Shown: positions 1,441 through 55,053 of the stretch, piece by piece
Layout of the letters: every line of letters begins with the position of its first letter
Position numbering within the stretch: the stretch's first letter is position 1
Notes under the pieces: generated by a model
Told to the model about the DNA's origin: nothing
Seen by the model: the letters and a program-made list of their open reading frames with translations, nothing else
Database searches by the model: none
Program-made: the position numbers and the translations under genes
IMG/VR virus record: IMGVR_UViG_3300044846_002992
Span: 1 to 55,054 of that record
Strand: one strand, 5' to 3'
Origin: a virus
Lineage: Duplodnaviria; Caudoviricetes
DNA: 55,054 nt

Positions 1441-1474
1441 AGTTTTTCGTCAACAAAACACACAAACACACATC

Positions 1475-2032
1475 ATGATCCAAACAGCACTATCACAAGG
1501 CTCCATCCTCAAGCTCGGTCCAGTTACCGTCAAAAAGACCTTCGACATGAAGGCTGGCGATAAAAACCGCTACGTAATCGTCACTGACCAGTCAGGCGAA
1601 GCAGCCCTCAAAATTTGGGGCGCAGCAGCAAACACAGCTCTCAACGCGGGCGACTCAATCACCCTCATCGGCACAGGCCCGAAGGGCGGAATCAAGGCTC
1701 AGGAATGGCCAGCAGGCTCAGGGAAGTGGTCACTCAATGCGAACGATTGCCGCCTCGAACTTGGAGGTGGCTCCAGGACTCACCAGGAGCCCTTAGGCGG
1801 CTCCGAAGAGCACGTCGGCTACTCTCATCCAGAAAGCCACTACTCGCCTCCTACAGGCAATTCTGGAGACAAGCTGGAAGCGGTGGCGAAACGAGCAGCA
1901 GCAGGAACAGCTTTCTACATTGACGAGCTTGTGGTCAATCACGGCTTCAGCAAGGACGAGGCCATCATGCTCGCTCAAGGCGCTCACTCGATGTTCCCAC
2001 TCTACTGGGGCGGAGAAAAATTCCTCCATTGA
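1475..2032 (+). CDS. OB-fold single-stranded DNA-binding protein (RPA-like)
   Basis: YVIVTDQSGEAALKIWG...LNAGDSITL matches the OB-fold 'DxSGxxxxxxW' pattern; located in the replication arm. Confidence 0.65.
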   Translation: MIQTALSQGSILKLGPVTVKKTFDMKAGDKNRYVIVTDQSGEAALKIWGAAANTALNAGDSITLIGTGPKGGIKAQEWPAGSGKWSLNANDCRLELGGGSRTHQEPLGGSEEHVGYSHPESHYSPPTGNSGDKLEAVAKRAAAGTAFYIDELVVNHGFSKDEAIMLAQGAHSMFPLYWGGEKFLH

Positions 2033-2074
2033 TGATTTGCGGCGACGGTATGCTTGGCGGGTCCTTTCTGCCCC

Positions 2075-2345
2075 ATTTTCACCAGCGTCACCCCGCGACC
2101 AAGTAGGGAAGAGTGACGCGCCGCATCCAATCACAACAACGCACCTCCAAAGTGCAGGTTGTGTCCAGCCGTAAGCGATCGTAGCGAGCTGGGCCCGTCT
2201 CAGGGATACGAGACTACCATTCGGGCGTGAATTCGTAGCCGAACGAAAGACAGGCATGCGAAAATTGCCATCCCGACCCGCAGCGGATCTGCGGAGGAGA
2301 GACTGAGTAAGCCCTCCTCAAGTGGCGTGCTCAACCCTTTTCCAA
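2075..2345 (+). ncRNA. putative structured non-coding RNA
   Basis: Intergenic region tiled by at least 7 hairpins: gcgtcac/gtgacgc, cacaac/gttgtg, ccagc/gctgg, gtctc/gagac, ttcgg/ccgaa, ccgcag/ctgcgg, gaggag/ctcctc. Confidence 0.6.
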
Positions 2346-2377
2346 TCATGATTAGCCCATCCAACTACCCTACAAAC

Positions 2378-4297
2378 ATGACGCCTCTGCCCGAGGCTTA
2401 TCGCGACTACCTGGTCCTTGGATGGGGAAACTCATTTCTAGTGCCAGCCAATTTTCAAGGAATTGCATTAAGCGAGGGTGCCAACAATTGGAACGATGAC
2501 AGCAACTGGAGCGGACTATCCACAAGAAGACTTTATGCCGCTCCTCCCAACTCTGCCATTGTAAGAGCAAACCTTCCTCAATTGCCTGAGGGTGCTCGCA
2601 TTCTTGGTTTGGGGGGCTCATTCAGTGTTGGGGAAATCTTTCGGGGATGGGCCATCAGCGAGCCATTCGCCGAATGGAGAGAAGGCGATCACTGGAGTGG
2701 GACAAGCGAAGAAAACATCTATGCCATTATGGAAACTCCTCAATCAGCTCCAGCGCCAACTCGATCGTTTATGCTCCCGCTGCCATCAGCCTGTCTGCTT
2801 GCCATCCCGGAGGGACAAATTTACCTTGGGACGGGTGGGGAATTTGAGACAGGAGGAGAGCGGTTTAGGGGGCGCTATGGCACACATCGCTTTGGACTCG
2901 AAGGGAACCAAAGCGGACATCAAACTGACTATCACTACTGCGCTCCCGCAAACTCGAATGTGGTAAGAATGAACCTGCCACCTCTGCCTGAGGGGTTTGC
3001 CATTGTCGGATACGGGTCAGCATTAATGCCGCCGATCAACGGAGGTTATCGCCTCAATCTTGAAAGCCCAGACCCGACCTGGGAGGGGCCTGGTGATTTT
3101 GCAGGAAAAGACTGGGACTCCATTTACGCGGTGAGAGAAGCTCCCGCAGTAGAAGACCAGCTGCAAGAAGTCCAAGTGGAGCAGCCGCAACAGCAAAAAG
3201 CAGCTCTTCAGTGGCATGTTGTCATTGGAGGTCAAGCTCTCTCAACTTGTGACGAGGTGCGGGTCGCTGCCTCTCCATTAGTTTCCGACTCAAACAACCT
3301 GCTCGGGGTGACTAATGCCATTGATGAGGCCATGCGAGTCAGCGACCCCGATCTCTTCATCGAAAGCTGGATTGATAAAGAGCCAGCTCTCATCTCCATG
3401 CTGGAGTGGGTTCCGCTTTCGTCAACGCAAGGAGTAGACATTCACGCCATTGCGGAGTCGAACGCCACCATTGCCGACGTGATCACGAAGGCTGCTGCGG
3501 GCGTCATGCTGCGCGGAGGCTTCTCAAGCCACTTCCGCTATCTTGAAGACGGAACGCTTGCCATTGACCCATCCAGCCCTCCCACAGTGGATCAGGCTTA
3601 CGAGTTGCTGCGCCGCACCCTTGAAATCAAGGAGACGGCCTCAAAGCTCGACAACTACTCTGCGTGGATGCTGGGGATGATTGCGGACCAGTTTGAGGTG
3701 TATTTCGGGGAGCGTTTCGACCCCTCCGTCATCATGCAGCAGACCAGCAGGGCCTACAACACCTACGTTTGCTCTCTGGGCACCTTCCGTGCTTGGTGGA
3801 CCGAGAAGCGCAACCTATCATTCACTCACCACCGCGAGGTTCAATATGCCAAGCATCTCGATCACGACACTGGCGGGCGCGTTCTCGACCTCTCAGAGCG
3901 CTTCAAGCTCACCGTCCTCCAGCAGCGCAAGCTCATCTCCTACGCCAAGCGATTCGACATCGCCAACCTTGAAGGCGAGATGGGCGAGATGGGTGAGTTG
4001 GAAGAGGGTGATGTGGAAGGGCTGATGGAGCGCATCGACATCCGAGCGGTGAACAAGCGCTACCTCTTCTTCCTGCGGACCACCAACAAGTGGTTTGAAT
4101 ACAAAGGTCCATTTGAGAACATTCCCAACGGGGCCTCTCCCATCATCAATGCGGACACCCGTCAAATCATGGGCCAAGATGGTCAAGCTACGAAGCCTGA
4201 CGAATGGATTCCTGTTGGTGTCATTGCCTCTCCAGCAGCCCTTGAATCTGTTGGGTTTGATGTAGAGGATGAAGAAGACGAGGAGGATGAGTCGTGA
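2378..4297 (+). CDS. N-terminal 4x tandem-repeat domain fused to an LmbU-like DNA-binding domain (start 2348 or 2378)
   Basis: Repeats of the form LPEG..LG.G..F...W.G....YA. The C-terminal SAWMLG..YFGERF..TSRAYNT..RNLSFTHHREV..LTVLQQR resembles the LmbU family pattern (WxLGD..LSFxHHxEV). Acidic tail. Confidence 0.6.
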   Translation: MTPLPEAYRDYLVLGWGNSFLVPANFQGIALSEGANNWNDDSNWSGLSTRRLYAAPPNSAIVRANLPQLPEGARILGLGGSFSVGEIFRGWAISEPFAEWREGDHWSGTSEENIYAIMETPQSAPAPTRSFMLPLPSACLLAIPEGQIYLGTGGEFETGGERFRGRYGTHRFGLEGNQSGHQTDYHYCAPANSNVVRMNLPPLPEGFAIVGYGSALMPPINGGYRLNLESPDPTWEGPGDFAGKDWDSIYAVREAPAVEDQLQEVQVEQPQQQKAALQWHVVIGGQALSTCDEVRVAASPLVSDSNNLLGVTNAIDEAMRVSDPDLFIESWIDKEPALISMLEWVPLSSTQGVDIHAIAESNATIADVITKAAAGVMLRGGFSSHFRYLEDGTLAIDPSSPPTVDQAYELLRRTLEIKETASKLDNYSAWMLGMIADQFEVYFGERFDPSVIMQQTSRAYNTYVCSLGTFRAWWTEKRNLSFTHHREVQYAKHLDHDTGGRVLDLSERFKLTVLQQRKLISYAKRFDIANLEGEMGEMGELEEGDVEGLMERIDIRAVNKRYLFFLRTTNKWFEYKGPFENIPNGASPIINADTRQIMGQDGQATKPDEWIPVGVIASPAALESVGFDVEDEEDEEDES

Positions 4298-7666: not shown

Positions 7667-7963
7667 ATGAAAGACATCGAATCACAAGCTATCGAATATG
7701 CAGAAGCTCTGAACGACATTGCGGATGTTCTCGACATGCCCACTGGTGCGAAATCCGCCGAAATAGTGCAAGCTGCCCGCAACCGATGGTCGAACGGAAT
7801 CCATACGTGCCACGACAAATGCAGCCGCGAAAGGTGCGTTGAGCGCCGCAAAATGAGATCCATGCGGGAGGCGCTGGAATACATCGCCCATAGTGGACTG
7901 TCCGCGCGGCATCTTTCCGACCATGCCCGAGATCACCTTTTTGTCAACAAAACCAACTTATGA
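7667..7963 (+). CDS. hypothetical protein
   Basis: Contains HTCHDKC...C; ATGA overlap with the next gene. Confidence 0.65.
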   Translation: MKDIESQAIEYAEALNDIADVLDMPTGAKSAEIVQAARNRWSNGIHTCHDKCSRERCVERRKMRSMREALEYIAHSGLSARHLSDHARDHLFVNKTNL

Positions 7964-9481: not shown

Positions 9482-9520
9482 GCGCGTCAGCCTACCTCCT
9501 GGTTTTGTTGACGCAAGAAC

Positions 9521-9632: not shown

Positions 9633-9637
9633 TTTTC

Positions 9638-11231: not shown

Positions 11232-11260
11232 TTTTTGTCAACAAAACCAAATCAACCCCT

Positions 11261-13346: not shown

Positions 13347-14242
13347 AACAAGCCTCCCTCACTCCGCGACAGTATCACCAACTGCAATTTGATCTAAACA
13401 AGCTGCCCGACCTAACGAAGACAGGTCCAATCTCAGCCTCCATCCTGAGCGCTGCGCGAGACCCTCTCCGAATGGTGCTGTGCCAAAAAGCGCAAACCAA
13501 CGAAATGCAGTGGGGCAATCTCGTTGATACCCTCTGGCTGACCCCCGCTCTGTTTGCCTCTGAATACGCCCTACTGCCCGAAGACGCGCCTCGCGATGTT
13601 CGTGGAGACAAACGCATCATGAACGCCAAGAAGCCGTCTCAGGACTCCCTGGACGCCATTGCGTGGTGGAATGGCTGGGATGCAAAAACGAGAGGTCAAA
13701 CCCCCATCAAGCAGGCAGAGCTGGATGAGGCCAAAATGGCCGTCAGCATGCTCAACCAAAATGACTTGGCCCGCTCCATCCTGGAGGCATCAAGCAAGCA
13801 GGTGGCCCTTGTGGGAGATTCGCCCTATGTCCCTGGAGCCAAAGCAAAATGCCTCATCGACCTCCTGCCAACCAGCGGGCCTTTTGTTGACGCAATTCCA
13901 GACCTCAAGACCACCGGGCAAATGGGAGAAAAGCAACTGGCCTCCACCGCGTTCACCTTCGACTACATCTTCAAGCTGGCCTACTACGGAGTGCTGGCAG
14001 AAATCGCCGGATTCGGCCCCAGGACGCGAGGTGTGCTGGTTTGGCAAAACTCCTCTTTCCCCTTTGAGGTGAAGGTGAGAGAGATCCCCAAGTCGCAAAT
14101 GGACATAGCTCGGCAGCTTCTGATGAGTCGCCATCGCAAACTCCAATCAATCAACCCCGCTGACATCAGATCCCACTTCGACACCACCCTCCGAGAAATG
14201 CCATTGCCCGACTGGGCGATGAATGCTTACGCTTCGGAATGA
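13343..14242 (+). CDS. PD-(D/E)XK exonuclease (RecE/ExoVIII, DUF3799-like)
   Basis: ISASIL, MQWGNLVD, KCLIDLL, DLKTT and Y..KLAYY. Confidence 0.8.
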   Translation: MKQASLTPRQYHQLQFDLNKLPDLTKTGPISASILSAARDPLRMVLCQKAQTNEMQWGNLVDTLWLTPALFASEYALLPEDAPRDVRGDKRIMNAKKPSQDSLDAIAWWNGWDAKTRGQTPIKQAELDEAKMAVSMLNQNDLARSILEASSKQVALVGDSPYVPGAKAKCLIDLLPTSGPFVDAIPDLKTTGQMGEKQLASTAFTFDYIFKLAYYGVLAEIAGFGPRTRGVLVWQNSSFPFEVKVREIPKSQMDIARQLLMSRHRKLQSINPADIRSHFDTTLREMPLPDWAMNAYASE

Positions 14243-15232: not shown

Positions 15233-15504
15233 CAATCAACACCTCAGACATGGAAAGCGCGTGCCGCGCCTGGGAGCGCGATGTTGCCTTATGGCAGGTA
15301 TCCAGAGACGAAGGCGAAGAAATCCCGTGTCCACAAAAACCCGAGGGTTACGACCTGTTCGTTCAAGGTGAAGACCCCATGAACTTTTTGTCAACAAAAG
15401 GTCCACGCTGCCAAGGAGGCGGCCTAGTTCCAGCAAGCTGGACATCAACAACACTTCCGGTAAGGCTACCGGAACAACATTTGCACCAACCCGACCTATT
15501 ATGA
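15229..15504 (+). CDS. hypothetical protein
   Basis: ATGA overlaps on both sides. Confidence 0.6.
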   Translation: MTINTSDMESACRAWERDVALWQVSRDEGEEIPCPQKPEGYDLFVQGEDPMNFLSTKGPRCQGGGLVPASWTSTTLPVRLPEQHLHQPDLL

Positions 15505-16457: not shown

Positions 16458-17254
16458 GCGAGCTTCCACACAACGCCCAAGTCCTAGGAAAAGGAGGAAC
16501 CTTCAAAGTGCCCGTTGGCGGCTTCCACGGCTGGATGCGCCTTGGCGATGATCCCTGGCAAGAAGATCACTGCTCTGGCGTGACGGCGGCGCTGGAGTTT
16601 GCATGCCCGATTGGCAGTGATGTCTGGAAGTTAAATCAGCCGGAAGTTGAGTCTGAAGTTGCGTCAACAAAACCAGAAGAGCGCGAAGGGGAAATCCCAT
16701 TGGCCGACCTCATTAACGCCTGTTGCCGGACTGATTTTGAAAATGATGAAGAAGCTAGGCGGGCAATACGAACAGAGCAATTCCAGCGCATGGAAAAACT
16801 GCTGTGGCCACGAAACCCAGGCAAAACAGTGAGTCCAATGCCCATCACGCCAGAAACCCACAAAGTGGAAGGCTACCCGCAATTGCCTCAGAATAGCTCA
16901 GGTGAGGCTTGCGCATCTCCAGAGGTGCCAAGCCTTCCAAATCCATTTGAAGCCCTTCAGAACGCTCCTGACGAAGAAGAAGACGTTTTGGAAGAAGCGC
17001 TCCGAATCACGAGTGGCGACAGGCAAAATCAATACGGCCCGCCAGATCAAGACTTCACCCGCACAGCAGCAATGTGGAGCGCTCTCTTCGGGCACAAGCT
17101 AAAGAGCCCCTTCGAGGCTCGTGACGTAGCGATGGCGATGATTTGCTTGAAGTTGTCCCGAGAAACTCATCAGAGAAAGCGCGACAACGCCGTTGACGGG
17201 GCTGGCTATTTCAGGTGCCTTCACCTATGCAATTTGAGCAAAAAACCGGAATGA
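16454..17254 (+). CDS. DUF6378-like (putative nucleotide diphosphohydrolase) domain protein
   Basis: C-terminal LEEALRITSGDRQNQYGPP..F..TAAMWS..MICLKLSR..DNAVDGAGY. Confidence 0.75.
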   Translation: MSELPHNAQVLGKGGTFKVPVGGFHGWMRLGDDPWQEDHCSGVTAALEFACPIGSDVWKLNQPEVESEVASTKPEEREGEIPLADLINACCRTDFENDEEARRAIRTEQFQRMEKLLWPRNPGKTVSPMPITPETHKVEGYPQLPQNSSGEACASPEVPSLPNPFEALQNAPDEEEDVLEEALRITSGDRQNQYGPPDQDFTRTAAMWSALFGHKLKSPFEARDVAMAMICLKLSRETHQRKRDNAVDGAGYFRCLHLCNLSKKPE

Positions 17255-18267: not shown

Positions 18268-21200
18268 TCAGCGCCTCCACTGATTGTCCCAAATTTGGGC
18301 GCCTGTTTTGTTGACAAAACGCTTGTTCAAATCTTGCTGGAGTTCCCGCGGAGTGAATGGCATGCCTCCCAAAAGGAGAAGTCCCATATCCCGGACGGAA
18401 ACTTCATCAGGGGCGTTGCTGATCACCGTGAGAGGCTCCACGATATTCGCCACGCCGTCCATGACCAGAGAGTAGCGAGCCAGATCGTTCATCAGGGATG
18501 AAGTGGCGGTGTAGATGGCATTGTCCCATCCGCTACCATCACTGATGTCGGTGTTTTCCAAGGTGAAGCCAGCACGCTCAAAGTGAGCCGGGCTTCCTGG
18601 AATCAGAGGATCAACAACCTTGTTCATGGCGTATTGCCCAAATGCTCCACCGACCGCAGTGGAGGCCACAAGGCCAATGTTGCCATAGGGAACCTGCTTT
18701 AGAACCTCCATGCCCAATTCGACAGTGATCTGGTGCAGGTCCTGATTACTCTTAGACTCGTCAAACCCTCCAACTGAATCGGACCAGCCGATGGGACGCG
18801 TGCCACCCAGGGTTAGCGCAACCCACTTCATCATAGTGCGCTCGTCTGGGTTTTTCGGATCAATCCCGAAGAAGCTTGCATACAAATCCTCGCGCTCTTC
18901 CTCGTCCATTCCTGTGAGCATGCCGATTCCCTGTGCGATAAGGTATGACGCCACTTTGTATTTCACAAGGCGGAACAGGACGTTCTGAATGACATTCGAC
19001 GCAAGGAGGCGCTTGCCAACCGCGCGAGCCTGGGCATCTCCATTCATGATCATGCTGTAGGCTGCCATGCTGTTGCCAGCAACATGGACCTGGTGGTTCG
19101 AAAGCTGCATCGCGCCAAGCCTCAAGATCTCAGCCCCGATGGTCTCCCGTTGCTGGAACGCGCCAGCCTTCTTTGACTGGTCGGCGGTAGCGGCCATGTC
19201 TGCCACGTCCCGTTCGGAGCGGCGCAGGACAGAGGATGTGACCTCTTCCATGCTGAAGGAGGGCTCTAGGAACTCCTTGACTGTCAGTTTCGCGGGCATG
19301 CCAGCCGCCTCACGGGCAGCATTGATGTGCCTCACGACAGAATCTATGAAGATTGTATTGGCGATGGTCTTTTCCGCCCCGCCGATCACTGTCTGGACCA
19401 TGCGACTACCTGCCTCCATGGCAAGACTGCCAGCTCTCCCCACAGTGTCCGTCACGGGGGATAGGATGTTGGTGGCTCTTCCGGCAAGACGGCCCCGTGA
19501 ACGCATGCCTTTCGACGGGCGCACGTAGTTGATGTCGTCAAGGTAGTCGCGTTCGCCATTGGCCTTTCGAAGCTGCACGTTGATTCCAATCTCGGCGACG
19601 CGACGGTCAATGCGAGAAGCAAGGTTGTCAGGTAGCGCGGTTCCGGTCAAGGCGCGCAGAGGCGCTCCAAGGCCGTTCATGGCCCTGTGTAGTAAGTAGT
19701 CAGCGTAAAGAGCCATGTATCCCACGTTCTTGCCAACGCCTCCATGCACCATTGCGTAGGTGATGACTGCTGGCAGGGTTTGGGTATAGAGCTGGGAAAC
19801 AGAATTGAGAGCCTTCACGATGCCGAGCTGGTGAAGCTTCTGGACAAATCCCATCGCGCGATGCTTCGGTCCCTTGGAGGCCATCTCCTTGCGCAAGATT
19901 TGTTGCCCCATGTGGGCAATTGCGTTCGCTGCGTCAGTGAGCTGGTCTTCCTTGCCAGGAAGAAGAGTGGAGGCGTTCTCGTCGATGTAGCCATAGTCAT
20001 CAGTGCCCTTGGCCAAAACTCCATCGTGAATGTGGGTGGTGCCAACGGTGGCACGGAAAGCCTCGTAGGCCGGAGTGACGTTCTGCCTAAAGAGCATATC
20101 CTCCGCGATGCGCAGAGGCACCGTCAGGCCGTTGGTGTCGAGCATGTGCATCTCTCCGTGCTTCGGGTTGCGGACAGGCGACTGCATGAATGCAGCGCGT
20201 CCAAGCCCGAGCCGCTCATGGAGTGGAGCAATCTGCTCTGAGGTTGAGTGGGTCCTGCCGAAGGTTTGCCACATCATGGCCATTGGAGTTACTCCCTCCA
20301 TAAATTTGGTGTCCACACCGGAAAGTCTGGCTTGCTCGACATACGACTCACGCAGGTAGTTCAGGGTTTCGTTGACAAAAGTGCCCCATTGCAGAGAGCG
20401 TGGAGGCAGCGTGGCCTGCAGGCTCAGAAGCTCAGCATCTACATCAAAGCTGGACCCGGTGGTCATCCTGGCAAGGGGATCACGAAACGTCTTTTCAAGC
20501 TCTTGAACAATAACCCTCTGCTCAAGCAGGCGATAGGTCTCCTCGGTCATGTAGGCCTTCAGCTCGGAGGACTTCTGGCGAAGCTTCTCGATGCTCATGG
20601 AGAGAAGATCAGTCCTGGTGGTAGCTCCGGTAGTAGGAGGAAGCCCGGCAAGGATTGCCTCCTCAATACCATCCAGCGCCTGCAGGAACATCTTCTGCAT
20701 GGTCTTGACACGATCCTGAACCTTCGAGCCTGAAGGGCCAGATTGGATGTATCCACGCATCGCAAAGAACATATATCCAAGAGACGACTCCCACAGAACG
20801 TCAGGCCTGCTGGACGCCCTGGTAAAGGCGCGCTTGAAGCGACCACCAAAAATTTTGTTCATCTTGCGGTTGAACAACTTGGATACCTCATTGAGTTGAG
20901 CGCGATGATTATTGATGCCAGTCTTACCAGCAGGACCGTAGGACAGCACGCCAATCATGTCCTCGGCAGACTCAATGGCTGCAAACTTCTTGGCGAACAA
21001 CTTCCTCATGGCTCCGTCATGGTTCATCAGCATGGAAAACACGCCACCCTCAGCAAACGGCTTTTCTTTTTCCGTCCAGATGCGGGATGGAAGATAGCCA
21101 GACTCGATCAGAGCGGCAGACTGATTACTGCCAATCTGGGCCTCAGCAAGGTTGGCAACGACGTCAATCTTGCGAACAGTGCTGATTGTTGGGCTGCCCA

Positions 21201-24200
21201 TCTCACGCATCAGGGCTTCAGCCTGCACCTGCACCGAGCCGGAAAGCATATTGCCCTTCAGGGCCGCGATGATAGAAGCAATGCGAAGCTCCGTCGAAGA
21301 GCGGACAGACGCTTTTGGATCGAAGGCCCCAAGCTCTGCAGCAGTGTTTCCAATACGAGATGTGGCGCGATGGAAGCCAAGAATCGGATTGAGCGAGACC
21401 ATGTAGGCAGAAGCGTCGCGCTTCGACTGTGGATCAATGTGCGCCGCAGTGCGGAGGTTGGCGGAGCCATCAGCATTGACCTTGAGTGGAGCCCGTGGAG
21501 CGGCTGGCTTGGAGTCCACCGGACCAATCTGGTTATCCACAACGTGGTAAGGCTCACCAGTGAGTATGGTCATGGTATCAGCCACAATCTCGGCCTGTTC
21601 GTCAGCCGTGCGGGCCGCGACGTGGTTTGCAGCAAATTTGTCCAGAAGGCTGGAGTTGGCGATGTTCCTAGTATAGTTCTCCTCCCAAACCTGGGCTCTC
21701 CAGAGATGGTCACGGCGAAGGGCCTCAACGTCGTCTGCAGCTCCGAAGTAACGAAGCTGGCTCGGAAGATCCATGCCGCGTGGGGCGAACACCTTCTGTT
21801 TGCGCCTGATATATTTCTGCTCTTCGCGGAGGGCGTCCGAAAGAAGCCTCTCGGCCTTGCCGCGTTTATGGCGCTCGCGCTCCTGAAGGATGTTACGGGA
21901 CAGACTGAGTGCAATCTGGCGCTTGGTATTGGTGCTTAAGCCTTGAACGGCGGCGTGATTGGCTGACTCCATCTCGCTCAGAGTGCGGAACACGTCCATT
22001 ACCAAGGCGTTGGGAGTGTCTGGAGTGTTGTCCACGCGTGCCTCCCGGTCAGAGAGGCGCTGGGCCAGAATGCTCGTAAGCGCTTGCGCCTGCTGCTCAA
22101 ACGGGAACACGGACGCATGGATGGATGCCGCGATTGCCTGACGCTTCTCATCAGGAGACATCGTCTTGCTGATCAGGGCACTCACAATTTGGGGAAGCGC
22201 TTCATCAGGGATTTGGATTTCCCTATTCGGCTCCACACCGGAGAACTCCAGCGAGCTCAGGCCATTGGATGGGTCGTATGTCGCCAAGCCTTCCGCGGCC
22301 TCTAGGGCGGCAGCGGCTTCTGCGGTGCGCCTCACGCCAGTTGTGGTGGACATGCGGGTGGCGTGCGCCTGGATGCTTGCAATGGAAGCCAGGGCGTCAT
22401 CCAGAGAGTCCAACGCGTTGTTGCCCATGCGGAGCTCTGTAGACATCAGGCGCATTCCCATGCGCTCACCAACGAAGGTTGTGTAGGCATCGACAACTTG
22501 GTTGAACTTGCTTCTGGCCCTGCCCATCGCCATCACCGCGCGGAACAACGACTCATTTGCAGACTCCTTGGTTGCAAGGTTTTCAGCAGCCTCGCCTGCG
22601 GCTCGGGCGGCTTGCGCCTCCTGATGAAGGCGTTTGAAATTGGCTTCAGCCTTGGACAGCAGCTTGGAAACGCGGCGAGACTCGGCGGCGATTGCGGCCT
22701 GTTTCGACTCGATAATGACAGGGGTTCGGGTCAGGCCATTGCCGGGACTGGTTGCTGCAATCCTGTCACGCAGGGCATCCACTCCAAAAGCCTTGGCAAG
22801 CTGGGATAAGCTGGTCTCAATTTGCACGTCGGTCATGACGTGAGGAGCCTTCCCTCCGTTCATGACGGCGACGTAAGCATCAAACGCGGTCTCGTCTTTG
22901 ACGCTTGGGTTGCGCTGGTAGGTAATAGAGTTCGCCGCCCATTCATCAGCAGCAACACGCTGCCTGCTCTGACGGGCCTTGTAACGGCCTCTGGCTTCGT
23001 TCAGGCGGGTCTCAAGGACGTTCAGACGCTCCATGTCGGCCTTGCGACGCGCGGACTCAGCACGGGGATTCTGGATGGCAGGAGACGCAATCCTGGACAG
23101 CACTCGGGCATTAACCCTCGGGGCTTGCACGAGACGCAGGGAACGAAGCAGATCGCCACTCCGAGACTCAAATTGCTCGATCACAGAGTTGGTCATTGCA
23201 TCCACCAGCTCGCTGGCACCATCGAAGTGGGACTTAAGGAGAGGGCCCGCATCAGCCCAGTGGCCTTCTGCGATGGTCAGGTATTTCCCGCGGCCTAACA
23301 CCTCGCGAAACTGCTCCATATCACGAGCCGCCAACAAGTCCTTCCTGACCTCGTCCAGCTCGCTGATGGCATCAGAGACCACCTTAGCCTCAGCCATTGC
23401 GTTCGCGGCGGAAGTCTCCATCTCCGCGATTTCGCGCATGGCCTTGTTCGCCTCGCGCCTGATCATCGTCTGCTGCCAGGTGAGGCTGTCCACCTCCTGC
23501 TCGACTGGCTGAATGTCAAGATGACTGAAGCCATGGTTGGCCACTTGATGGAACAGCTCCTCTTGCGCCTTCCTAAAGACCTCCCCAGTCGAAAGGGCGC
23601 TACCAGTGGCGAGACCAGGCACAGTCAGGACATACACTCCGTTTTCATCAATGGTCCACTTTGTTGGAAAAGTGGCAGGCTTTTGAATGGGCTGGCGAAA
23701 AAGCTTTGCCCCTTTCACGGCGGCATCGTGAGCTGCTGTTTTCTTGAGCCTGTATCCGACGATGCGCGAGTAGGGAAGTCCAGTGATCATACCGGCCTTG
23801 TCCCACTGATCGCGACCACGCTCATCTTGCCCAATTCGCATCTCAATTCTCACGGGCTCCACCTCATCTCCCGTGTATTCCCTGCCAGTTTTGTCAACAA
23901 AAATAGGCCTGCCTTGGGCGTCGTGCTTCTGAAGCTTGCGCATCACAACACGGCCCTGTTCCTGACGCTCCCGCTTGATCTGCGGGAGGTTGGCGGCAAT
24001 CTCCAAACGGGCCTTGCCCCAGGCGTTCGTGACTTCGACGGCACCGTCGGCCTGCGCAATTGGGAATGCTCCCTTCTTGAGCCTGCCTTCATACCAGTTT
24101 TGCCCGGAGCCTCCCATCTGCGAAAACGACCACTGCTTGTAATGAGCGGCGACGTCCTCCTGCCATTCCGTGGTAAACGGAACGACGCTCAGGAAGTAGC

Positions 24201-34155: not shown

Positions 34156-35382
34156 TCAGTAGGAGTGTCCGGTAAAATACAACCCAAGAGACTTCAGAGT
34201 TTTATTCAAAAGGGAGTCGGGGTCAGCAAAGCTAACCGGAGGCTCCATTTCATTCCAGAGCTTATTATAGGCGTCGCGCTTAGTCTTGAGCTGCTGGTCT
34301 AGTTTTTCACGAGCAATGGCGGAGGAATCAGAAAGCTGACGATCAAGAGTGGTCGCAAAATGTTTTGGTGGGCGAGTCTGAATAAGGGATTGTGATGGTG
34401 CGGACTGGCTGGCCTGAGTGCCTTGGGGGTTAAGGCTCTGAATTAGAGGGCCGATAGTAGGAATCCCCCCGCTCAAAAACGATTTACCCAAAGCATCAGA
34501 AAGTGGAGGCGACTGAAATTGAGTTGACGCAAAACCGCTACTGGGTGCTGGAGCGGGAGTTGCCGATGCTTGATAGTCAGACATCAAGGAGCTCGCCTCT
34601 GAGAAAGCGCGAAGGCGATCAGCCAATGGCGTTGAACTTTCATTCTGCCCCCCGATAGCCTGTGGGGTAGAGCCTTGAGGGAGACTGGTTGGAGTGGATG
34701 CTTGGCCAGCAGCAAAAGACGGAACCGGAAGGCCCGGCTGAGGGCTTCTCAGAAGGGAACCGGGGGCCGGAGTGGTTGAGCCGCCAGTCGCCTGAGCCCA
34801 TGTTGATGGCTGCGCTGGCGCTGCTGGAGCAGCGCTGCCTGCTGGAGCCGTAGTTGCATCACGACCCAAGTAGCGGTCAATGGCATCACGACCAACCCCG
34901 ACGCCAGCACCTCGATCATAAGCACGCTGAAGAGCCCCCTCGTCCCCAGACTGAATGAGCGCGGAGCGATTGAGATCTTGCGCGAAAGTCTGCCTGTCTC
35001 GCAAAGATCCTTGGGTCACGGCTTGAGGTTGCTGAAACGAAAGAGAGTCGCGACGATTCTCGAATTGAGACATCAGGCGGTTTTCCACAGCACCAGCCTG
35101 CCGGATTCCGCCAGAGCTAAACCCGCCCTTATCCATTTCCTGAAGCACTTGGAATGCCCCCATGGAATTGCCTGAGCGAAGCGCGTCACGATAGGCCCTG
35201 CGACCCATGCGCTCCATGCGCTTGAAGTTTTGAACGCCTTCGCGAACCCCGCGTTGTTCCGACTCGGCTTGACGCTGCTCATTGAGGGTTTTGCCTAGGC
35301 GCGAAAATCCACTTGTGCCAAAAGCGCGGCCATTCATAGGACCTGCAAAATCGGAGTTGTCTTTGGTTGGGTCCATAATCAA
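34156..35382 (-). CDS. probable internal virion protein, low complexity
   Basis: Pro/Ala/Ser/Gln-rich; position after the tail adaptor. Confidence 0.55.
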   Translation of the reverse strand: MIMDPTKDNSDFAGPMNGRAFGTSGFSRLGKTLNEQRQAESEQRGVREGVQNFKRMERMGRRAYRDALRSGNSMGAFQVLQEMDKGGFSSGGIRQAGAVENRLMSQFENRRDSLSFQQPQAVTQGSLRDRQTFAQDLNRSALIQSGDEGALQRAYDRGAGVGVGRDAIDRYLGRDATTAPAGSAAPAAPAQPSTWAQATGGSTTPAPGSLLRSPQPGLPVPSFAAGQASTPTSLPQGSTPQAIGGQNESSTPLADRLRAFSEASSLMSDYQASATPAPAPSSGFASTQFQSPPLSDALGKSFLSGGIPTIGPLIQSLNPQGTQASQSAPSQSLIQTRPPKHFATTLDRQLSDSSAIAREKLDQQLKTKRDAYNKLWNEMEPPVSFADPDSLLNKTLKSLGLYFTGHSY

Positions 35383-36071: not shown

Positions 36072-37370
36072 TTATAGAGGAGTGTTTTCACGCGAAGCGC
36101 AAGTCCCATCTTTTGTTGACGCAACAGACCAACCAAATCCTCGCTGTGTGTGCTGGCCCTCACGCTTCTCCTTGTCCTCGCTCCACAAGCGACCGGGTGC
36201 CTCGCGGAGGATGGAGGCTGCCATTTCCGAGCCCCAGCAAGACTCGATTCCAGCCGTGAGGGAGTTGGTATCGTGCATGGCGATGACTGGGGTTTTCAGA
36301 GCAAGGGCCGTCGCCAAATCAGCAAGGGCGGGCCAGCGATGATCGCCGTCAATGAAGACCAAATCAGCCTCGATGCGGGCCTCCCAGTAGGGCTTGAGGT
36401 GAACGGTGATTCGGTCTTTGGCTTTGCATGCGTCAATGCGGGCTTGGAGCGCTGGGGTGATGTGAAGCTCAATGATGTGAAACTGCTCGATAAAGCCAGA
36501 ATCAAGAGCATCCAGAAAAGCCTGAGTGCTCACTCCGTCATGTGATCCAATTTCAACAGCGACCTTTGGTGAATGCTCCTCGATTAGAGCCTGAAGCATG
36601 AGGACGTGGCCTTCATCCATGTGCATAGGCCATTGGCTTCTGGCTGTCCTTTTCGCTGTTTGCCTTGGCTTGATCGAAATCAAATTGCGTTTCATGTTGG
36701 AGGGCGTTCTGACGAGCATTTTCGGATGAGGCGCTGAAGGAAGTCGGCGTTTGTCCAAATCGGCGAACCTGGAAGCTTTCTCTTTCCCGTAAACATGGAA
36801 CATCCATGCAGGTTTGAACTCTTTCGGAAACGAGTGCCATTTCCTGTCCAAATCCCAAATCTTCAAACCATCTCTCTCAGCAAGCATCAGCCACCAGTTG
36901 AAGTGATTTTGCTCCATGATGCCCTCGATGTAAGGCTCCTCAATCACGCGAAGAAGTCGCTTCGCCGCATCCCTGTCCACCACCCAAATCCCAGCATTGC
37001 GGTAGTTGCCGCCATTGTCAGGCTCTTCGCCGAAGTGCTCAATGCACCAAGGAATCCAGTAGGGGTTATTCACTCGTCTGGCATGGCACCTTGCGTGCAT
37101 TCCGGGCCCAAAGTGGGGAAAGGGGGCTTCCGGGTGAACGAGGACATCCGCATCCACATACATCATCTGATCGGAGTCTCCACGAATGAACGCCCTGAGC
37201 ATGTCCACCTCGCAAAACTTCACGTCCGGGTATCCCTTCTCAAGGGCTGTTTCATCGGTCCAAATATGCCTCTCCAAGCCGTGGCGTTTACACCACGCAT
37301 CAAGAGTTTTGGAGCACCTCTCCATCCAAAACGGGTTGCCGAAGCGAATGGTGTGAACCTCCACCTTCAT
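36072..37370 (-). CDS. GT-A glycosyltransferase fused to a class I SAM methyltransferase
   Basis: GT motifs YVDADVLV, NAGIWVVD and EQNHFN; MTase motifs VEIGSHDGVST, DLVFIDGDH and MHDT. Start at MKVEV (ATGA overlap). Confidence 0.85.
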   Translation of the reverse strand: MKVEVHTIRFGNPFWMERCSKTLDAWCKRHGLERHIWTDETALEKGYPDVKFCEVDMLRAFIRGDSDQMMYVDADVLVHPEAPFPHFGPGMHARCHARRVNNPYWIPWCIEHFGEEPDNGGNYRNAGIWVVDRDAAKRLLRVIEEPYIEGIMEQNHFNWWLMLAERDGLKIWDLDRKWHSFPKEFKPAWMFHVYGKEKASRFADLDKRRLPSAPHPKMLVRTPSNMKRNLISIKPRQTAKRTARSQWPMHMDEGHVLMLQALIEEHSPKVAVEIGSHDGVSTQAFLDALDSGFIEQFHIIELHITPALQARIDACKAKDRITVHLKPYWEARIEADLVFIDGDHRWPALADLATALALKTPVIAMHDTNSLTAGIESCWGSEMAASILREAPGRLWSEDKEKREGQHTQRGFGWSVASTKDGTCASRENTPL

Positions 37371-38296
37371 TTTTCCCAAGGGGCTTTCGTTGACAAAAGA
37401 CGCCTCAGCTCGTCCTGCGTTCTCGGGTCCGGACCTCCAGATTTGTGGTTGAGGTAGCGATGATTCCCCGGAACCGGGAGCCGATTGGTTTTGTGAGGAT
37501 CGCATGGTTCGTGAGGCGTTCTGTGATGATTGTGGTAAATGTTGACCCAGCTTCCCTTAAAAGCCAAGTAGAACTCGCGCATCACCTCAATGGACTTCTC
37601 TCTCTCGAAAAGATAGGGGGTGTGCGTTGCGAAGCGCCAGATGGGGCTGTGGCCTCGCTTCTTGAGTTCCGCGCACGCATCTCCCATTGCCTGCCTCCAG
37701 CCGTTCTGAGACGATCTGAGGGCATCTTCCTGATCGTCGAGAGTCCCCTCGGTGAGGGCGATGCGGAGGTCGTCCCAGCCAGTAGGCCTGAGGAAGTAAA
37801 TGTCATCGTTGGTCCAGCAAACCTCATCGGCGATTTGGAGACCAATTTGGTTTGCCGCCCACAAGCCCGCAGCTCTCGATTGCTGGTATTCGGGAATGAG
37901 GATGAATTGAACGCGCTCTCCCGACTTCAGCCACGCTGGGGCTCGATTGCCGATGATGTAAATGGGGGACTCCTTGTCCTTGAAGAAACGATGGATGGAG
38001 CGCAGGGAATACTTCAGCTCGTCCCAGGCCTCATTCACGGCAAGCCATGGGCACACGATGGCCCTTTCGTGACGAGGCTCGTAGATGGTGAAGGGCTTGG
38101 GCTTCTGGGTGACGTAGGGCTTGGGCGTGCTCCTTCGCTGGCTCGCGGTAGGGAATGCCGAGGGGCGAACTAAATTTGGATGGTTTCTTTGGGTTGCTTT
38201 CATGTCTCGTGGTTGGCCGCATCCGGCGCATGATTTGACTAGCTGGGCTCCTTGGTAAACTGGCCCATCCTCTCCGCCTTTCAGCTTCCAGCGCAT
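37367..38296 (-). CDS. Stealth-like (hexose-1-phosphate transferase) protein
   Basis: DELKYSLRSI..IYIIG..WL and TNDDIYFLRP match the Stealth CR2 pattern; start uncertain. Confidence 0.7.
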   Translation of the reverse strand: MRWKLKGGEDGPVYQGAQLVKSCAGCGQPRDMKATQRNHPNLVRPSAFPTASQRRSTPKPYVTQKPKPFTIYEPRHERAIVCPWLAVNEAWDELKYSLRSIHRFFKDKESPIYIIGNRAPAWLKSGERVQFILIPEYQQSRAAGLWAANQIGLQIADEVCWTNDDIYFLRPTGWDDLRIALTEGTLDDQEDALRSSQNGWRQAMGDACAELKKRGHSPIWRFATHTPYLFEREKSIEVMREFYLAFKGSWVNIYHNHHRTPHEPCDPHKTNRLPVPGNHRYLNHKSGGPDPRTQDELRRLLSTKAPWEK

Positions 38297-42353: not shown

Positions 42354-42401
42354 TGGGGTGGTGGTTGCGTTGACAAAAGTGTGACCGATTTTTCAGGGAG
42401 G

Positions 42402-48094: not shown

Positions 48095-48111
48095 GGCCGT
48101 GTTTTGTTGAC

Positions 48112-48166
48112 GAAAGAGAAAAGGAAAAGGCCCCCTTGCTCAGGGGTTCTGGCAAAGGGGCCTTTC
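48112..48166 (-). terminator. intrinsic terminator after the major capsid gene
   Basis: Hairpin aaaggcccctttgc..gcaagggggccttt followed by a U-rich tract on the - strand. Confidence 0.75.
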
Positions 48167-49643: not shown

Positions 49644-49678
49644 AAAAAAAAGAGCAGGGGTCGCTAGGCCCCCGCCCT
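49644..49678 (-). terminator. intrinsic terminator after the scaffold gene
   Basis: agggcgggg-gcctagcga-cccctgctct followed by T7 on the - strand. Confidence 0.7.
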
Positions 49679-49770
49679 TACAAATCATCAGGTGTCTCTC
49701 GCTCTGGTGTTCTGTGGAGCAAAGATGACACGTAACAAAGCGATTGTCAACAAGTTATGAATCGACCAGT

Positions 49771-51021
49771 TTATGCTGGTGGGGTGAATGTGAATTCCAT
49801 GCCCCTCATGCGATCGGCGAGGCCCTCGAACTCATTGCCTCCAGTGGGTGTTGGGGCTGGTTGACCGCTGATTGGGGCGGGTGCTTGTCTGGTGCCTTTC
49901 AGAATGGCCAACTCCTTGCGAAGCGCGGCAATGGCCTTACGAGCCTCTGGGAGGGCCGTAGCGGTGAATGCAAGATAGCCGATGTCGTCAGGCCCAAGCG
50001 TATTCAGATCAACGACAGAGGCCCCATTCATCGCTGCAATGGCAACGTCGGTGAGCTGGCCGGATGAGTCGGTGAAGCCCGGAACCGTTTTGGCATACTT
50101 GGTGAAGGACGACTCGACGGACGCCTTGAACAATTGCACTTTCTGCTCCGCTTCCTGACGCAGAGCTGTTTCACGAGCTAGACGGGCTTTCTCGGCGTTT
50201 GTTCCTGAAGAGGCTAGCAGAGCAGCGCCCTTGGCCTCGGCGGCCTTGTAGTCGTCGCAGAAGCGCTCAATGCGGCCTGCCGTCCGGGAGCCCAACTTCT
50301 GGTGGAGCTGCTCAAGCATTTGGTCCTGCTTGATGATGTCAGTTTCGGTAATGACGGCAAAGATGGAGCTGGGATCAATCTTGGAGGTTTCGGCAATTTG
50401 CCCAACCAGCTTCTCGATGGCCTTGATAGGCTCTCTGACTTGAGCGATGAACTCGTCCGACTCCTTCACCTCCACCTCGTTGTTAACCTGAAGCAGCTCC
50501 TTGTTGCGTTGACGCAACGCCTCGGCCTCGCCGCGAAGACGCTCAGCCTCTGCGGCCTGCTGCCTGAGGGTTTGCACCTCTGGAATTGAGTCGATGTCAG
50601 CAATGGGCTTCTGCTCCTTGAGAACCTTCAGTTCAGCACGGAGGCGCTTGTATTCGTCGCCGGGATGGCCCTTGGCGGTGATGGCTGCAACGATGGCATC
50701 TGTCTGAGCATCGAAGTCGAGGTTGGGCGTAGCCGCTGGAGTTTGCTTCACTCCAAAGGTTGGAAGATCATCATCTTCTTCATCAGCGTCAGGGATTGGC
50801 GCAACTGCTGGAGTCGATGGTTCTACCGGGGTTGCTGGCTCAGCAGACTCCACGGGAGCAGTGATGGATACGGGCGCTGGTTCATCCTCCACAGGCAAAC
50901 TGCCCGGAGGAGTGAAGGTGAAGTCCTTGCCAGCCATGCGGGAGGAGAGGCTTTCTCCGGCATAGTCGGAATCTCCAGCGGCTTCGTTGCGAAGGAATAG
51001 TGGGAATGCGTGTCGTTTCAT
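49771..51021 (-). CDS. capsid scaffolding protein
   Basis: Acidic Pro-rich N-terminus with coiled coils; the FTFTPP motif occurs near both ends; lies between portal and MCP. Confidence 0.7.
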   Translation of the reverse strand: MKRHAFPLFLRNEAAGDSDYAGESLSSRMAGKDFTFTPPGSLPVEDEPAPVSITAPVESAEPATPVEPSTPAVAPIPDADEEDDDLPTFGVKQTPAATPNLDFDAQTDAIVAAITAKGHPGDEYKRLRAELKVLKEQKPIADIDSIPEVQTLRQQAAEAERLRGEAEALRQRNKELLQVNNEVEVKESDEFIAQVREPIKAIEKLVGQIAETSKIDPSSIFAVITETDIIKQDQMLEQLHQKLGSRTAGRIERFCDDYKAAEAKGAALLASSGTNAEKARLARETALRQEAEQKVQLFKASVESSFTKYAKTVPGFTDSSGQLTDVAIAAMNGASVVDLNTLGPDDIGYLAFTATALPEARKAIAALRKELAILKGTRQAPAPISGQPAPTPTGGNEFEGLADRMRGMEFTFTPPA

Positions 51022-53633: not shown

Positions 53634-54376
53634 GCTTGTGCTGGTTGCTCAAGTTGTTGTGCCATTTGGCGAAGCTTGTCAATGCCGGTGAAGTGGTGAG
53701 GGCGCTTGCCAGTTGCCTTCTCGATGAACGAAATGAGTTGGTCTTTTTCAAATTCATCCTCTCCGTGTTCAGAAATGGATGTTTTTTGTTCTTCTGGTAA
53801 GGCTTCATCCAGTCGCCGGAACAGAGCCTCCTTCTCCTCCAACCTGCTGAACCCATTTCCCATCAACAGATAGCGGCCACGAGAGCGCCACGATTCGTTG
53901 GTGGAGAAGCGGAACATCTTCATCATCTGCGCCGAAAGCTGGAGGGTGATTGGGCCTCGGGTCAGGAAGGTCTTGCCGTCCTGCTCAGCCAAGCCGCAAC
54001 TCTTTCCGCCACGGCTTCCATGGAGGCGGAGAATGGCCTGAGCCCAATTATCAACGAGCGGGACCGAGGGCTCATCAATGACCAGCCACGCGCCGGGAAA
54101 GCGCGAATAGGCCAGCATGGCGAAGCGGGCGAACATCGCCGCAACCTGAGCGTCGTGAGACAAGCTAAAGTTGCCCGAGCTTTTGATTGAAGAAGTGGTG
54201 GCGAAAACGTCGATGAGTGGGCGGGCGATGCGCTGGGCCTCTTTGGCAGAGATAACGCTCTGGTGGGAGATGATGAGAGCCCCGTTCACTTTTGCTGTTT
54301 GTCGCTCAGCCAAAAGCTGGATGGAGCGGGCCATGTCGGCCTTGTTGCTCTTCGTGAGGAAAATAACTGTGTTCAT
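53630..54376 (-). CDS. hypothetical protein between terminase and portal
   Basis: ATGA overlaps on both sides. Confidence 0.7.
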   Translation of the reverse strand: MNTVIFLTKSNKADMARSIQLLAERQTAKVNGALIISHQSVISAKEAQRIARPLIDVFATTSSIKSSGNFSLSHDAQVAAMFARFAMLAYSRFPGAWLVIDEPSVPLVDNWAQAILRLHGSRGGKSCGLAEQDGKTFLTRGPITLQLSAQMMKMFRFSTNESWRSRGRYLLMGNGFSRLEEKEALFRRLDEALPEEQKTSISEHGEDEFEKDQLISFIEKATGKRPHHFTGIDKLRQMAQQLEQPAQA

Positions 54377-55053
54377 CTGTGTCTAATTTTGGAACTGCGT
54401 CCGCTGAAACCCAAGCGCCTAACCTTCGGCATTGCAATCAAAGAATTGGTCGAACCCATTTTTTTTGCCATGAAGCCATTCAGCGTCTCATTGAACATCC
54501 GGTTGATTCGGCGGTCATCACGCCTGATTTCCACCACATCAAGCAGCCCGTTCAGGATGGCCACCTCAACGAGAATGACGAAGGTGTCAGCTAAGTCGGG
54601 GCTTTTTCCGAGCCGCTTCTTCATGTCCGCCTTCTCCTCCACACAGGCGCAGGTGGCGGAGTGGTTTTTGACGTGCCACTTGCGTTGACACAACTCATCC
54701 ACCACGTCCTGAGGAATGCCCCTAATTTGGCCCTGCCTCACCATTGCCTTCGGCTGCACCCAGAGCTGGGTGACGCGGTTCTTGTAAATTTTCTCGTCGT
54801 TGGTGGAGTCGGGCCTGCGCTCGACGGGCTTCTCTCCAAAACGAATGCCATGCACCGCATGAGACCATTTGGTGTGAAGCCACTGCCCGAATACAACACC
54901 CCCACCCGTGGCGTCAAAGCCCGCCCTCTTCGCGGGGATGCGGTGGTATTCACAGTGCTCCCTGAATTGGTTGATGGTGCTTTCACTAACGGTGATGTCC
55001 ACTTCCTCGCCTGTGTCCGAAATCCCTTTGCCTGCCGCCTCCTGAACGATTTT
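54373..55053 (-). CDS. terminase large subunit, C-terminal part (5'-truncated)
   Basis: FDATGGG, YKNRVTQLW and EEKADMKKRLGKSPDLADT nuclease-domain motifs; the frame is open to the window edge. Confidence 0.88.
   Translation of the reverse strand, partial: KIVQEAAGKGISDTGEEVDITVSESTINQFREHCEYHRIPAKRAGFDATGGGVVFGQWLHTKWSHAVHGIRFGEKPVERRPDSTNDEKIYKNRVTQLWVQPKAMVRQGQIRGIPQDVVDELCQRKWHVKNHSATCACVEEKADMKKRLGKSPDLADTFVILVEVAILNGLLDVVEIRRDDRRINRMFNETLNGFMAKKMGSTNSLIAMPKVRRLGFSGRSSKIRHR

Follow-up and report, generated by a model that had tools for sequence, protein, structure and literature searches.

The window analyzed here is an entire virus record of IMG/VR (IMGVR_UViG_3300044846_002992; Caudoviricetes), linear and 55,054 bp long, with a CheckV completeness estimate of 52%. 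A 14-bp quasi-palindromic element, TTKYGTYRACRMAA, is scattered over its whole length, and gene 2327-4297 near the left end codes for a protein with a ParB-like DNA-binding domain that is the candidate binder of the element (Table 1). Rightward genes extend to ~18.2 kb and leftward genes start from the right end. The rightward arm codes for a ThiF-like protein, an OB-fold SSB-like protein, a primase-helicase, an RNA ligase, HNH endonucleases, an exonuclease and NUDIX and HAD proteins. The leftward arm holds a truncated terminase-like open reading frame (ORF), unannotated structural-looking genes and a terminal ORF of 4800 aa. Contigs from many lake-water DNA runs carry the window sequence; no RNA run was among its listed holders.

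In the window we found 19 exact copies of the element, against a mean of 0.02 in dinucleotide shuffles (maximum 1 in 100 shuffles). A search at up to two mismatches gave 23 matches, namely the exact copies, three copies with one mismatch (28316, 31606 and 34519) and one with two (47140); the last was left out, giving a working set of 22 copies. Fourteen exact copies lie within coding sequence. When the 46 coding sequences were shuffled 1000 times with preservation of codons, the mean number of copies was 0.44 and the maximum 3, and no shuffle reached 14. Each site consists of 6-bp inverted arms around a 2-bp non-symmetric center and is thus a short palindrome of the kind expected for a ParB-family cognate site; in two other phage records described below, G004 and G005, the dyad grows to 16 bp. 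The arms each take TTTT, TTGC or TTTC independently, with mixed arms in 9 of the 22 copies, and this variation without hairpin covariation fits recognition of duplex half-sites, not a hairpin. A hairpin or RNA structure was rejected on the same ground, and no Rfam family reached its gathering score. A protein-coding motif was rejected because the intragenic copies use all three reading frames.

The copies are over-dispersed along the window. The smallest gap is 1184 bp, a value equaled in none of 100,000 random placements, and the coefficient of variation of the gaps is 0.51 (P 7e-4). As read along the plus strand nine copies have GTCAAC and 13 GTTGAC. Referred to the coding strand of the genome arm, GTCAAC is found in 17 of the 22 copies (two-sided p 0.017), or in 18 if the copy at 9503 goes with the minus-strand gene downstream of it; background GTCAAC/GTTGAC hexamers split 15:13 between the strands. 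Eight copies end 7-42 nt 5' of a start codon where 0.83 were expected (p 8e-7; 45-nt limit), and in all eight GTCAAC reads towards the gene served. The 4800-aa ORF holds seven copies, four sense and three antisense. A first-pass annotation, made from the DNA alone, had listed the same 19 exact and three one-mismatch copies, with about 18 of 22 reading GTCAAC on the transcribed strand, six just upstream of start codons and seven in the 4800-aa gene. These counts were reproduced, the start-proximal ones rising to eight, and the excess survived the codon-preserving shuffles that it had proposed as a check.

The center of the element is GTCAAC or GTTGAC in 22/22 copies, so the earlier statement that it is never symmetric holds in the window. 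This trait probably does not stem from the binder. Six-bp palindromes as a class are strongly avoided in the window (389 observed vs 720 expected; GTCGAC 1 vs 11.5), and one copy in the relative G001 has a GTCGAC center; in that genome palindrome avoidance is much milder (493 vs 570) and GTCGAC is not avoided (15 vs 18.8). We therefore hold that the always-asymmetric center is probably a dyad site on which restriction-site avoidance has been superimposed, and do not take it as proof of a core that is polar in itself. Such avoidance leaves unexplained the orientation bias of the copies, which is above the background rate. Fourteen palindromes are missing from the window altogether, including GCCGGC, CCCGGG, CACGTG and AACGTT.

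The sole close relative found, G001 (37,283 bp), is collinear with the window, and its primase is 65% identical. Single-protein and alignment scans for close relatives gave only G001 plus short metagenome pieces. Searches against cultured phages gave no match, either by megablast of 20 kb or by tblastn of the ParB-like domain and of a more distant homolog of it (from locus L277). Eight window sites were alignable with G001 (1445, 3417, 9503, 11233, 13882, 48102, 50504 and 54680), and site 7939 lies in a window segment absent from G001. A G001 copy is in place at five of the eight (1445, 13882, 48102 in degenerate form, 50504 and 54680) and missing at the other three. The coding copies retain 12-14 of their 14 bases within genes whose nucleotide identity is 55% (13882), 51% (50504) and 62% (54680), while only 4.6% of the 14-nt windows over all six aligned genes reach 13/14, and non-motif GTYRAC hexamers, used as a control, retain 7-10 of 14 bases. 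The intergenic copies 1445 and 48102 are kept though their flanks hardly align. Since the antisense copy in the exonuclease gene is kept antisense, the element is selected at the DNA level, inside genes too. Among contigs of four lake runs that are near-identical to the window, none of the 40 listed differences falls in a site, but with 0.4 expected by chance this comparison has no power. The 14-mer is a real element and is under selection.

Table 1. Positions of the 22 copies of the 14-bp element and of the gene for its candidate binder in the window
Feature	Position	Strand	Context
Site TTTCGTCAACAAAA	1445..1458	+	intergenic, 16 nt before ATG 1475; heads operon of ParB-like gene; G001 copy at same place (14187)
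Site	3417..3430	+	within gene 2327-4297; not kept in G001
Site	7939..7952	+	last codons of ORF 7667-7963; 7 nt before ATG 7960
Site	9503..9516	-	between divergent genes; 21 nt before minus-strand gene 8936-9481; 3 nt before plus-strand tRNA-like element
Site	11233..11246	+	intergenic; 14 nt before ATG 11261
Site	13882..13895	-	antisense within exonuclease gene 13343-14242; 13/14 bases in G001, likewise antisense
Site	15386..15399	+	in small ORF 15229-15504; 102 nt before start 15501
Site	16659..16672	+	within gene 16454-17254
Site	18306..18319	-	4800-aa ORF, 38 nt before stop
Site	20367..20380	-	4800-aa ORF, sense
Site	23889..23902	+	4800-aa ORF, antisense
Site	26620..26633	-	4800-aa ORF, sense
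Site, one mismatch	28316..28329	-	4800-aa ORF, sense
Site	29500..29513	+	4800-aa ORF, antisense
Site, one mismatch	31606..31619	+	4800-aa ORF, antisense
Site, one mismatch	34519..34532	-	within gene 34156-35382
Site	36111..36124	-	39 nt before stop of gene 36072-37370; 42 nt before next start 36068
Site	37385..37398	-	last codons of gene 37367-38506; 14 nt before ATG 37370 (ATGA overlap)
Site	42365..42378	-	intergenic; 11 nt before start 42353
Site	48102..48115	-	intergenic, past hairpin 3' of capsid-like gene; 7 nt before ATG 48094; degenerate G001 copy (35379) at same place
Site	50504..50517	-	within gene 49771-51021; 14/14 bases identical in G001, gene nucleotide identity 51%
Site	54680..54693	-	within truncated terminase-like ORF; 12/14 bases in G001
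Candidate binder gene	2327..4297	+	656 aa; N-terminal beta-rich repeats, long helix, ParB-type helical DNA-binding domain, C-terminal beta part; AF2 pLDDT 84.7
ParB/Noc/Spo0J-like DNA-binding domain	3644..3958	+	residues 440-544 of 2327-4297 product

A scan of IMG/VR with one exact window 14-mer returned at least 120 stretches, and among the matches listed several copies occurred in three contigs: G001, G004 and G005. G004 (41,475 bp, with a 127-bp terminal repeat and every gene on one strand) holds nine exact and three one-mismatch copies, against one match for a reversed-pattern control. They form a dispersed array with a smallest gap of 1678 bp (P 6e-4 for the 12 sites; P 0.02 for the nine exact copies alone). 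By tblastx the window and G004 have no similarity. When all ORFs of at least 45 aa from the window and G001 were compared with those of G004 and G005 by blastp (E<=0.01), a single match joined credible genes, namely gene 2327-4297 and its G001 orthologue to G004 ORF 19529-20434 (pairwise E 6e-6 and 1e-4, respectively); the remaining six rows were short overlapping ORFs. Searched against every ORF of six records, a profile of the common 174-position domain picked out just the three proteins of the window, G001 and G004. Run on whole records, it matched G000 and G004 only, with none in G002, G003 and G005. The motif-less relatives G002 (88% complete) and G003 are thus without the ParB-like domain.

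In the provirus G005 three copies of the same 14-16-bp dyad lie within 165 bp between divergent XRE-type genes (L150 8050-8450, record positions 38050-38450), next to an ImmA-like protease gene and an integrase gene. Neither a dispersed array nor the ParB-like domain was found in this record, and the cluster looks like a classical immunity region or operator set that works with an unrelated protein.

More distant homologs were collected by scanning IMG/VR with the family alignment, which gave 17 further loci (27-35% identity, in phages of ~40% G+C). Thirteen of these carry a 14-mer of like build, TTTAGCCAACTAAA, and L274, L278, L280 and L288 are without it; several loci are copies of one phage, so that the independent lineages number perhaps four or five. 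In whole records, counted at up to two mismatches against a reversed control, TTTAGCCAACTAAA occurs 10 times in G006 (control 1), 17 times in G007 (control 0), nine times in G008 (control 1) and 10 times in G010 (control 0), and once in G009 (control 2). Many copies of this second group sit 2-6 nt before an ATG, and in G007 the copies change strand near 35-40 kb. A motif copy also heads the operon with the ParB-like gene, 882 nt upstream of that gene in the window and 666-1015 nt upstream at L273, L277, L281 and L282. The idea that the site lies directly before the homolog's own gene was wrong, as at this distance it stands before the preceding ORF. Where the recognition regions align, T-S/G-R/K in the proteins of the window, G001 and G004 stands against S/T-D/E-K in the second group, a difference that is suggestive only. 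Other repeated 10-mers in L273, L278 and L288 turned out to be local tandem or coding repeats, not arrays.

The G004 homolog passes the Pfam family HTH_ParB (E 5.8e-5, 23.6 bits against a cut-off of 22.6). In its AlphaFold2 (AF2) model, with a predicted local distance difference test score (pLDDT) of 83.4, residues 112-211 align to the DNA-binding domains of Noc, ParB and Spo0J at Z 12.4-9.8, the best match being 7ol9_A (Z 12.4, root-mean-square deviation (rmsd) 2.3 Å over 99 residues), and to KorB at Z 7.2-7.6. Residues 440-544 of the window model aligned with Noc 7ng0 (VIA-align Z 10.8, rmsd 2.6 Å, 97 residues); the top 11 rows were all ParB, Noc or Spo0J (Z 10.8-8.7), with KorB at Z 6.8-7.1, and for helical domains a Z below ~13 can reflect a common arrangement. 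Foldseek ranked ParB-family chains first for the G004 model and among the top rows for the window model. The Pfam match of the G004 protein and the modeled fold of the window protein thus point to a central helix-turn-helix (HTH) domain of ParB type. A sequence search of the PDB with the G001 protein, the domain profile and the G004 protein gave nothing meaningful.

The other parts of a ParB system were not recognized. The N-terminal ParB/Srx CTPase domain, with its GERRxR-type motif, appears to be missing, as ParBc matched 0/92 family members and no G.RR.R motif occurs in the window, G001 or G004 proteins; in the AF2 model the N-terminus of the window protein is beta-rich. No ParA family matched among the scanned ORFs of the window and G001, both incomplete records, and no KGGxGK[ST] motif occurs in any ORF of at least 45 aa of the window, G001 and G004. 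The family counts 1930 representatives at E<=1e-3 and is nearly unannotated. A two-copy model of residues 380-656 gave a homodimer score of 0.60 against 0.01 for the best control, a mark reached by 20/30 proteins solved as one-chain pairs and by 1/23 solved as single chains. The homodimer runs share at least 74% of contacts with a partner pLDDT of at least 72. The pass may reflect likeness to solved ParB-family dimers.

We propose, with a probability of roughly 0.6, that the 14-mers are the cognate sites, parS-, OB- or Noc-like in kind, of a phage ParB/KorB-type protein without a CTPase domain, the product of gene 2327-4297. Specific binding of this protein to the sites is predicted from their co-occurrence. 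Taking the motif with its excess, spacing and conservation together with its co-occurrence with the gene and the fold, we infer that the protein binds the sites, that it binds as a dimer, and what this binding would do. The homodimer would place one recognition helix on each TTKYGT arm, and the protein would bind duplexes carrying TTTTGTCAACAAAA or TTGCGTCAACGCAA. The ~22 sites would form a genome-wide set of occupied points, one about every 2.5 kb, over both transcription arms. Because the family has no ParB N-terminal CTPase domain, a site-bound protein is expected and not a sliding clamp. The most likely role would be a KorB-like global control of phage gene expression, in which the protein, seated at gene starts and also ahead of its own operon, would form an operator or roadblock complex. 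The enrichment at gene starts, the sense orientation and the copy before its own operon argue for expression control, be it KorB-like or stoperator-like (by comparison with the available parts of PMC6550527 and PMC11790492). The even spacing and the conserved deep intragenic copies argue for an organizing role, and the evenly spaced intragenic copies would serve this second role on the replicating genome.

The first-pass annotation, too, had inferred genome-wide sites for a dimeric protein, and as a prediction this is favored by the comparative evidence. The parS-like and the stoperator- or operator-like variants that it named stay in play, whereas an ejection signal and a decoy for a host factor gained no support. 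Its candidate binders fared differently. The gene it called LmbU-like is common to all three motif-bearing lineages and has a ParB-type fold, and so stands as a candidate. Its membership of LmbU was not confirmed, as neither the window protein nor that of G001 matched an NCBIfam LmbU family at E<=0.1. A single Atlas structure row bears the LmbU name (TM 0.58 in that row, under the bar), all Atlas rows being sub-threshold. The third candidate, HTH gene 43409-43837, lies outside the part covered by G001. The multi-HTH gene 12018-12746 is absent from the motif-bearing G001. It codes for 242 aa with three HTH-like repeats (one sigma-70 region 4-like) and a zinc-ribbon-like motif; its absence from the syntenic place in G001 and weak matches to HNH-endonuclease PHROGs indicate that it may be a mobile insertion.

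A wider reading, which we hold to be doubtful, is that a large phage family has a ParB-type DNA-binding domain without the CTPase clamp, and that each lineage has its own co-evolving, polar, even and genome-wide 14-bp array. Such an array, which would extend into genes as well, would be an 'address' system by which the replicating genome is organized or marked, its sites serving, for instance, as periodic anchors (in replication, condensation or packaging) or for self-marking; it would differ from a classical operator set. The orphan dyad repeats of Cluster O mycobacteriophages might find their explanation here too.

Several observations weigh against gene 2327-4297 as the source of the binder. 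Few independent lineages stand behind the pairing of protein and site, and the homolog-bearing L278 and L288/G009 are without an array, G009 having one copy in 73 kb. The similarity between the window and G004 proteins is short (35% over 65 residues). The Pfam match of the G004 protein is marginal, and the ParB assignment rests on that match and the fold; neither the window protein nor its G001 orthologue matches Pfam or NCBIfam itself, and only 4/92 tested family members match any Pfam family, namely HTH_ParB. The Foldseek E values are above 0.001 (best 2.4e-3 and 0.31), and the Z scores lie in the range where helical domains can look alike. A symmetric dimer explains neither the orientation bias of 17-18/22 copies nor the same-strand flanks (aaG...CCgg) of the G004 copies. 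G001 has fewer copies, including a pair only 322 bp apart, so even spacing is not universal, and its divergent region between the arms has no copy. Finally, G005 uses the 14-mer without a ParB-like domain, so the sequence alone does not name the binder.

Much the same pattern could arise if the element were a signal specific to the host and recognized by one of its proteins, be it a global regulator, a nucleoid protein or the reader of a Chi-like or Ter-like polar signal, and if the phages had it in common through a shared host. The same array is present in two phage lineages without other detectable similarity, the orientation of the copies follows both arms as with Chi and Ter sites, and the same sequence serves another system in provirus G005; the chance that a host factor is the binder also counts against our proposal. 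We consider this unlikely, because the two lineages do share one gene and its DNA-binding fold, the motif changes along with the ParB-like protein in the more distant phages, and palindromic arms do not suit single-strand-read signals such as Chi. An exact-match scan of the genomes of 185,579 species gave at least 120 stretches; of the best 80 listed two had two copies and the rest one, in scattered taxa, and the lack of a motif-rich genome among the matches listed is a weak further point. Less likely still is a phage-specific promoter, or promoter-proximal activator site, for a phage or redirected host RNA polymerase. It would account for the eight sense copies ahead of start codons and for copies that come after a hairpin (48102, and 35379 and 18427 in G001), in a genome where no gene has a Shine-Dalgarno sequence and no excess of sigma-70-like or Bacteroidota-like promoters is present. 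(A sigma-70-like scan gave fewer matches than shuffles, and the count for the Bacteroidota -7 motif TANNTTTG, 13 vs 11.9, was that expected by chance.) Seven copies, however, lie in the last gene of an arm, where a promoter would serve nothing, three of them antisense. The antisense copy in the exonuclease gene is conserved, the divergent region of G001 from which both arms start is without a copy, no RNA polymerase gene or DxDxD motif was found, and no second promoter element lies within 15 nt on either side of the copies.

Another phage protein might bind the sites while the ParB-like gene merely travels along, for example a small ribbon-helix-helix or zinc-finger protein. Many ORFs are without a family match, and minus-strand gene 8936-9481 is cysteine-rich, 47% identical in G001, and has a copy 21 nt upstream. 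That copy is not kept in G001, however, and only the ParB-like ORF is common with G004 at blastp E<=0.01, which makes this a more remote explanation again. The least probable, in our estimate, is that the sites are places of DNA cutting or priming, either single-strand nicks as in T5, phiKMV and tf-like phages or starts of the T7 gp4-like, GTC-reading primase-helicase (4947-6842). The even spacing is in the Okazaki-fragment range, GTC on the sense strand would be on the lagging-strand template if forks follow transcription, HNH genes are present, and positions are conserved among relatives, as for the nick sites of the tf group (PMC3517423, available part). On the other hand, the nick motifs described there are asymmetric and single-strand, while the window has nine copies against 13 on the plus strand. 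The second palindromic arm has no role in priming, and G002 and G003 have a homologous primase but no motif.

The layout of the window is clarified by G001, which joins its two ends through ~11 kb of genes that the window is without. The window is therefore an incomplete or permuted genome with two arms that point away from each other near the terminase gene and meet at 18.2 kb; its ends lie inside the terminase-like gene (1-137 and 54373-55054). The joining segment, G001 17000-28100, holds four further motif copies (18427, 23583, 25058 and 25380). The 4800-aa ORF (18268-32670) is alanine-rich over its entire length, with no Pfam match, no PDB sequence match and no DxDxD motif; an RNA polymerase within it was rejected on these three empty searches. 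The capsid-like gene 48184-49626 is flanked by strong T-run hairpins at 49650-49679 and 48125-48165 (minus strand), the downstream one being retained in G001; terminator-like matches are not enriched in the window. Genes for an RNA-repair-like and nucleotide-handling set lie at 496-1440, 8243-8932, 15501-17937 and 42402-43412, comprising a ThiF-like E1, an RNA ligase, NUDIX, DUF6378, the HAD domain of 'Swiss Army Knife' RNA repair proteins and a metallophosphoesterase. A tRNA-like element at 9520-9593 matched the tRNA-Sec model at 24.6 bits, under the gathering score, and ARAGORN called no tRNA gene in the window. Apparent tRNA 5' and 3' halves stand on either side of HNH endonuclease gene 9672-10148 (regions 9520-9671 and 10149-11260), followed by a G+C-rich, ORF-free stretch of 1.1 kb. 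They may reflect an intron or homing-endonuclease insertion in a tRNA gene.

None of the 44 listed gene starts of the window has a Shine-Dalgarno sequence, and the leaders are C/A-rich and G-poor, so the host probably starts translation without Shine-Dalgarno pairing. G002 (L020-L024) and G003 (L025-L026), distant relatives with a 31% identical primase and without the 14-mer, carry a strand-exclusive motif, AACCCGAA(CCCGAA), on one strand in 61/61 copies in G002 and 42/42 in G003, most of them 3-15 nt ahead of an ATG. It resembles a ribosome-binding signal of a kind other than Shine-Dalgarno. Six to eight promoter-like, T-rich elements ending in GTCAGT lie upstream of it in these two records.

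Dispersed docking sites for ParB-type proteins are known from plasmids and have barely been studied in phages. In the literature searched, mostly outside subscription journals, we found no paper in which a phage site array spanning the genome is tied to a ParB-type protein. The proposed pair consists of one gene and 22 sites, with a second lineage carrying the same pair and a third group in which protein and site are both changed. If the predicted binding is true, ParB/KorB biology would take in proteins without a CTP switch and phages that are apparently lytic, about two thousand unannotated proteins would gain a function, and the way in which a phage marks or regulates its entire genome at regular intervals would become open to study. 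The intragenic copies show the coding sequence of these phages constrained by a DNA-level signal.

Noc and ParB/Spo0J provide the best structural matches of the phage domain (Z 10.4-12.4), and Noc binds many dispersed palindromic sites on one replicon. These proteins differ from the phage protein in carrying a CTPase domain, Noc also a membrane-targeting helix, and in being chromosomal, not viral; to our knowledge no regular spacing of 2-3 kb has been reported for the sites of either. The LmbU-family regulators of actinomycetes likewise combine a central HTH with homodimers and a short palindromic target (PMC6510168, in the part available), but the phage proteins are three to four times longer. 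The nick sites of T5, phiKMV and tf-like phages are short motifs found at 4-14 conserved positions of a genome with convergent arms; as the accessible text of PMC3517423 has it, they are asymmetric and all on one strand, unlike the window sites, which occur on both.

The stoperators of Cluster A phages (L5, Bxb1) come close in layout, with 20-30 sites over a two-arm genome of ~50 kb, oriented with transcription and mostly off promoters (available part of PMC6550527), and the window sites are likewise oriented with transcription on both arms (17-18/22, p 0.017). Stoperators, however, are asymmetric and bound by the monomeric immunity repressor of a temperate phage (PMC9283540, from its available part). 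The window sites have dyad arms and are mostly buried within genes, and searches of the window and of the extra 11 kb of G001, both records being incomplete, gave no gene for an integrase, a repressor or partition. The 17-bp dyad repeats of Cluster O (Corndog) are similar in that more than 30 inverted repeats with a non-symmetric center are dispersed over a phage that is not obviously temperate, that a dimeric binder was predicted, and that a protein with a ParB-like domain is encoded. Of 34 repeats, 14 are intergenic, 10 are close to a gene start and 10 are intragenic. They differ in sequence (TGTTCGGNNNCCGAACA) and in having no orientation bias, and in the portion of the report at hand its authors drew no link between repeat and ParB-like protein (PMC4351075). 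Dispersed phage dyad repeats have thus been reported before without a binder or function.

A close parallel would be KorB of the IncP-1 plasmid RK2. It differs in having an N-terminal CTPase domain (GARRYR), in sliding as a clamp and in working with KorA and IncC (PMC11790492, available part), and the phage sites differ from its operator OB in their 14-bp length, their 2-bp non-symmetric center and their location mostly within genes. In common would be a ParB-family DNA-binding domain, control of the regulator's own operon, and sites that lie at promoters and also kilobases from any promoter (same source). The operator itself, as given in the accessible part of PMC2680271, is a short palindrome, TTTAGC(C/G)GCTAAA, whose arms are nearly equal to those of TTTAGCCAACTAAA in the second phage group.

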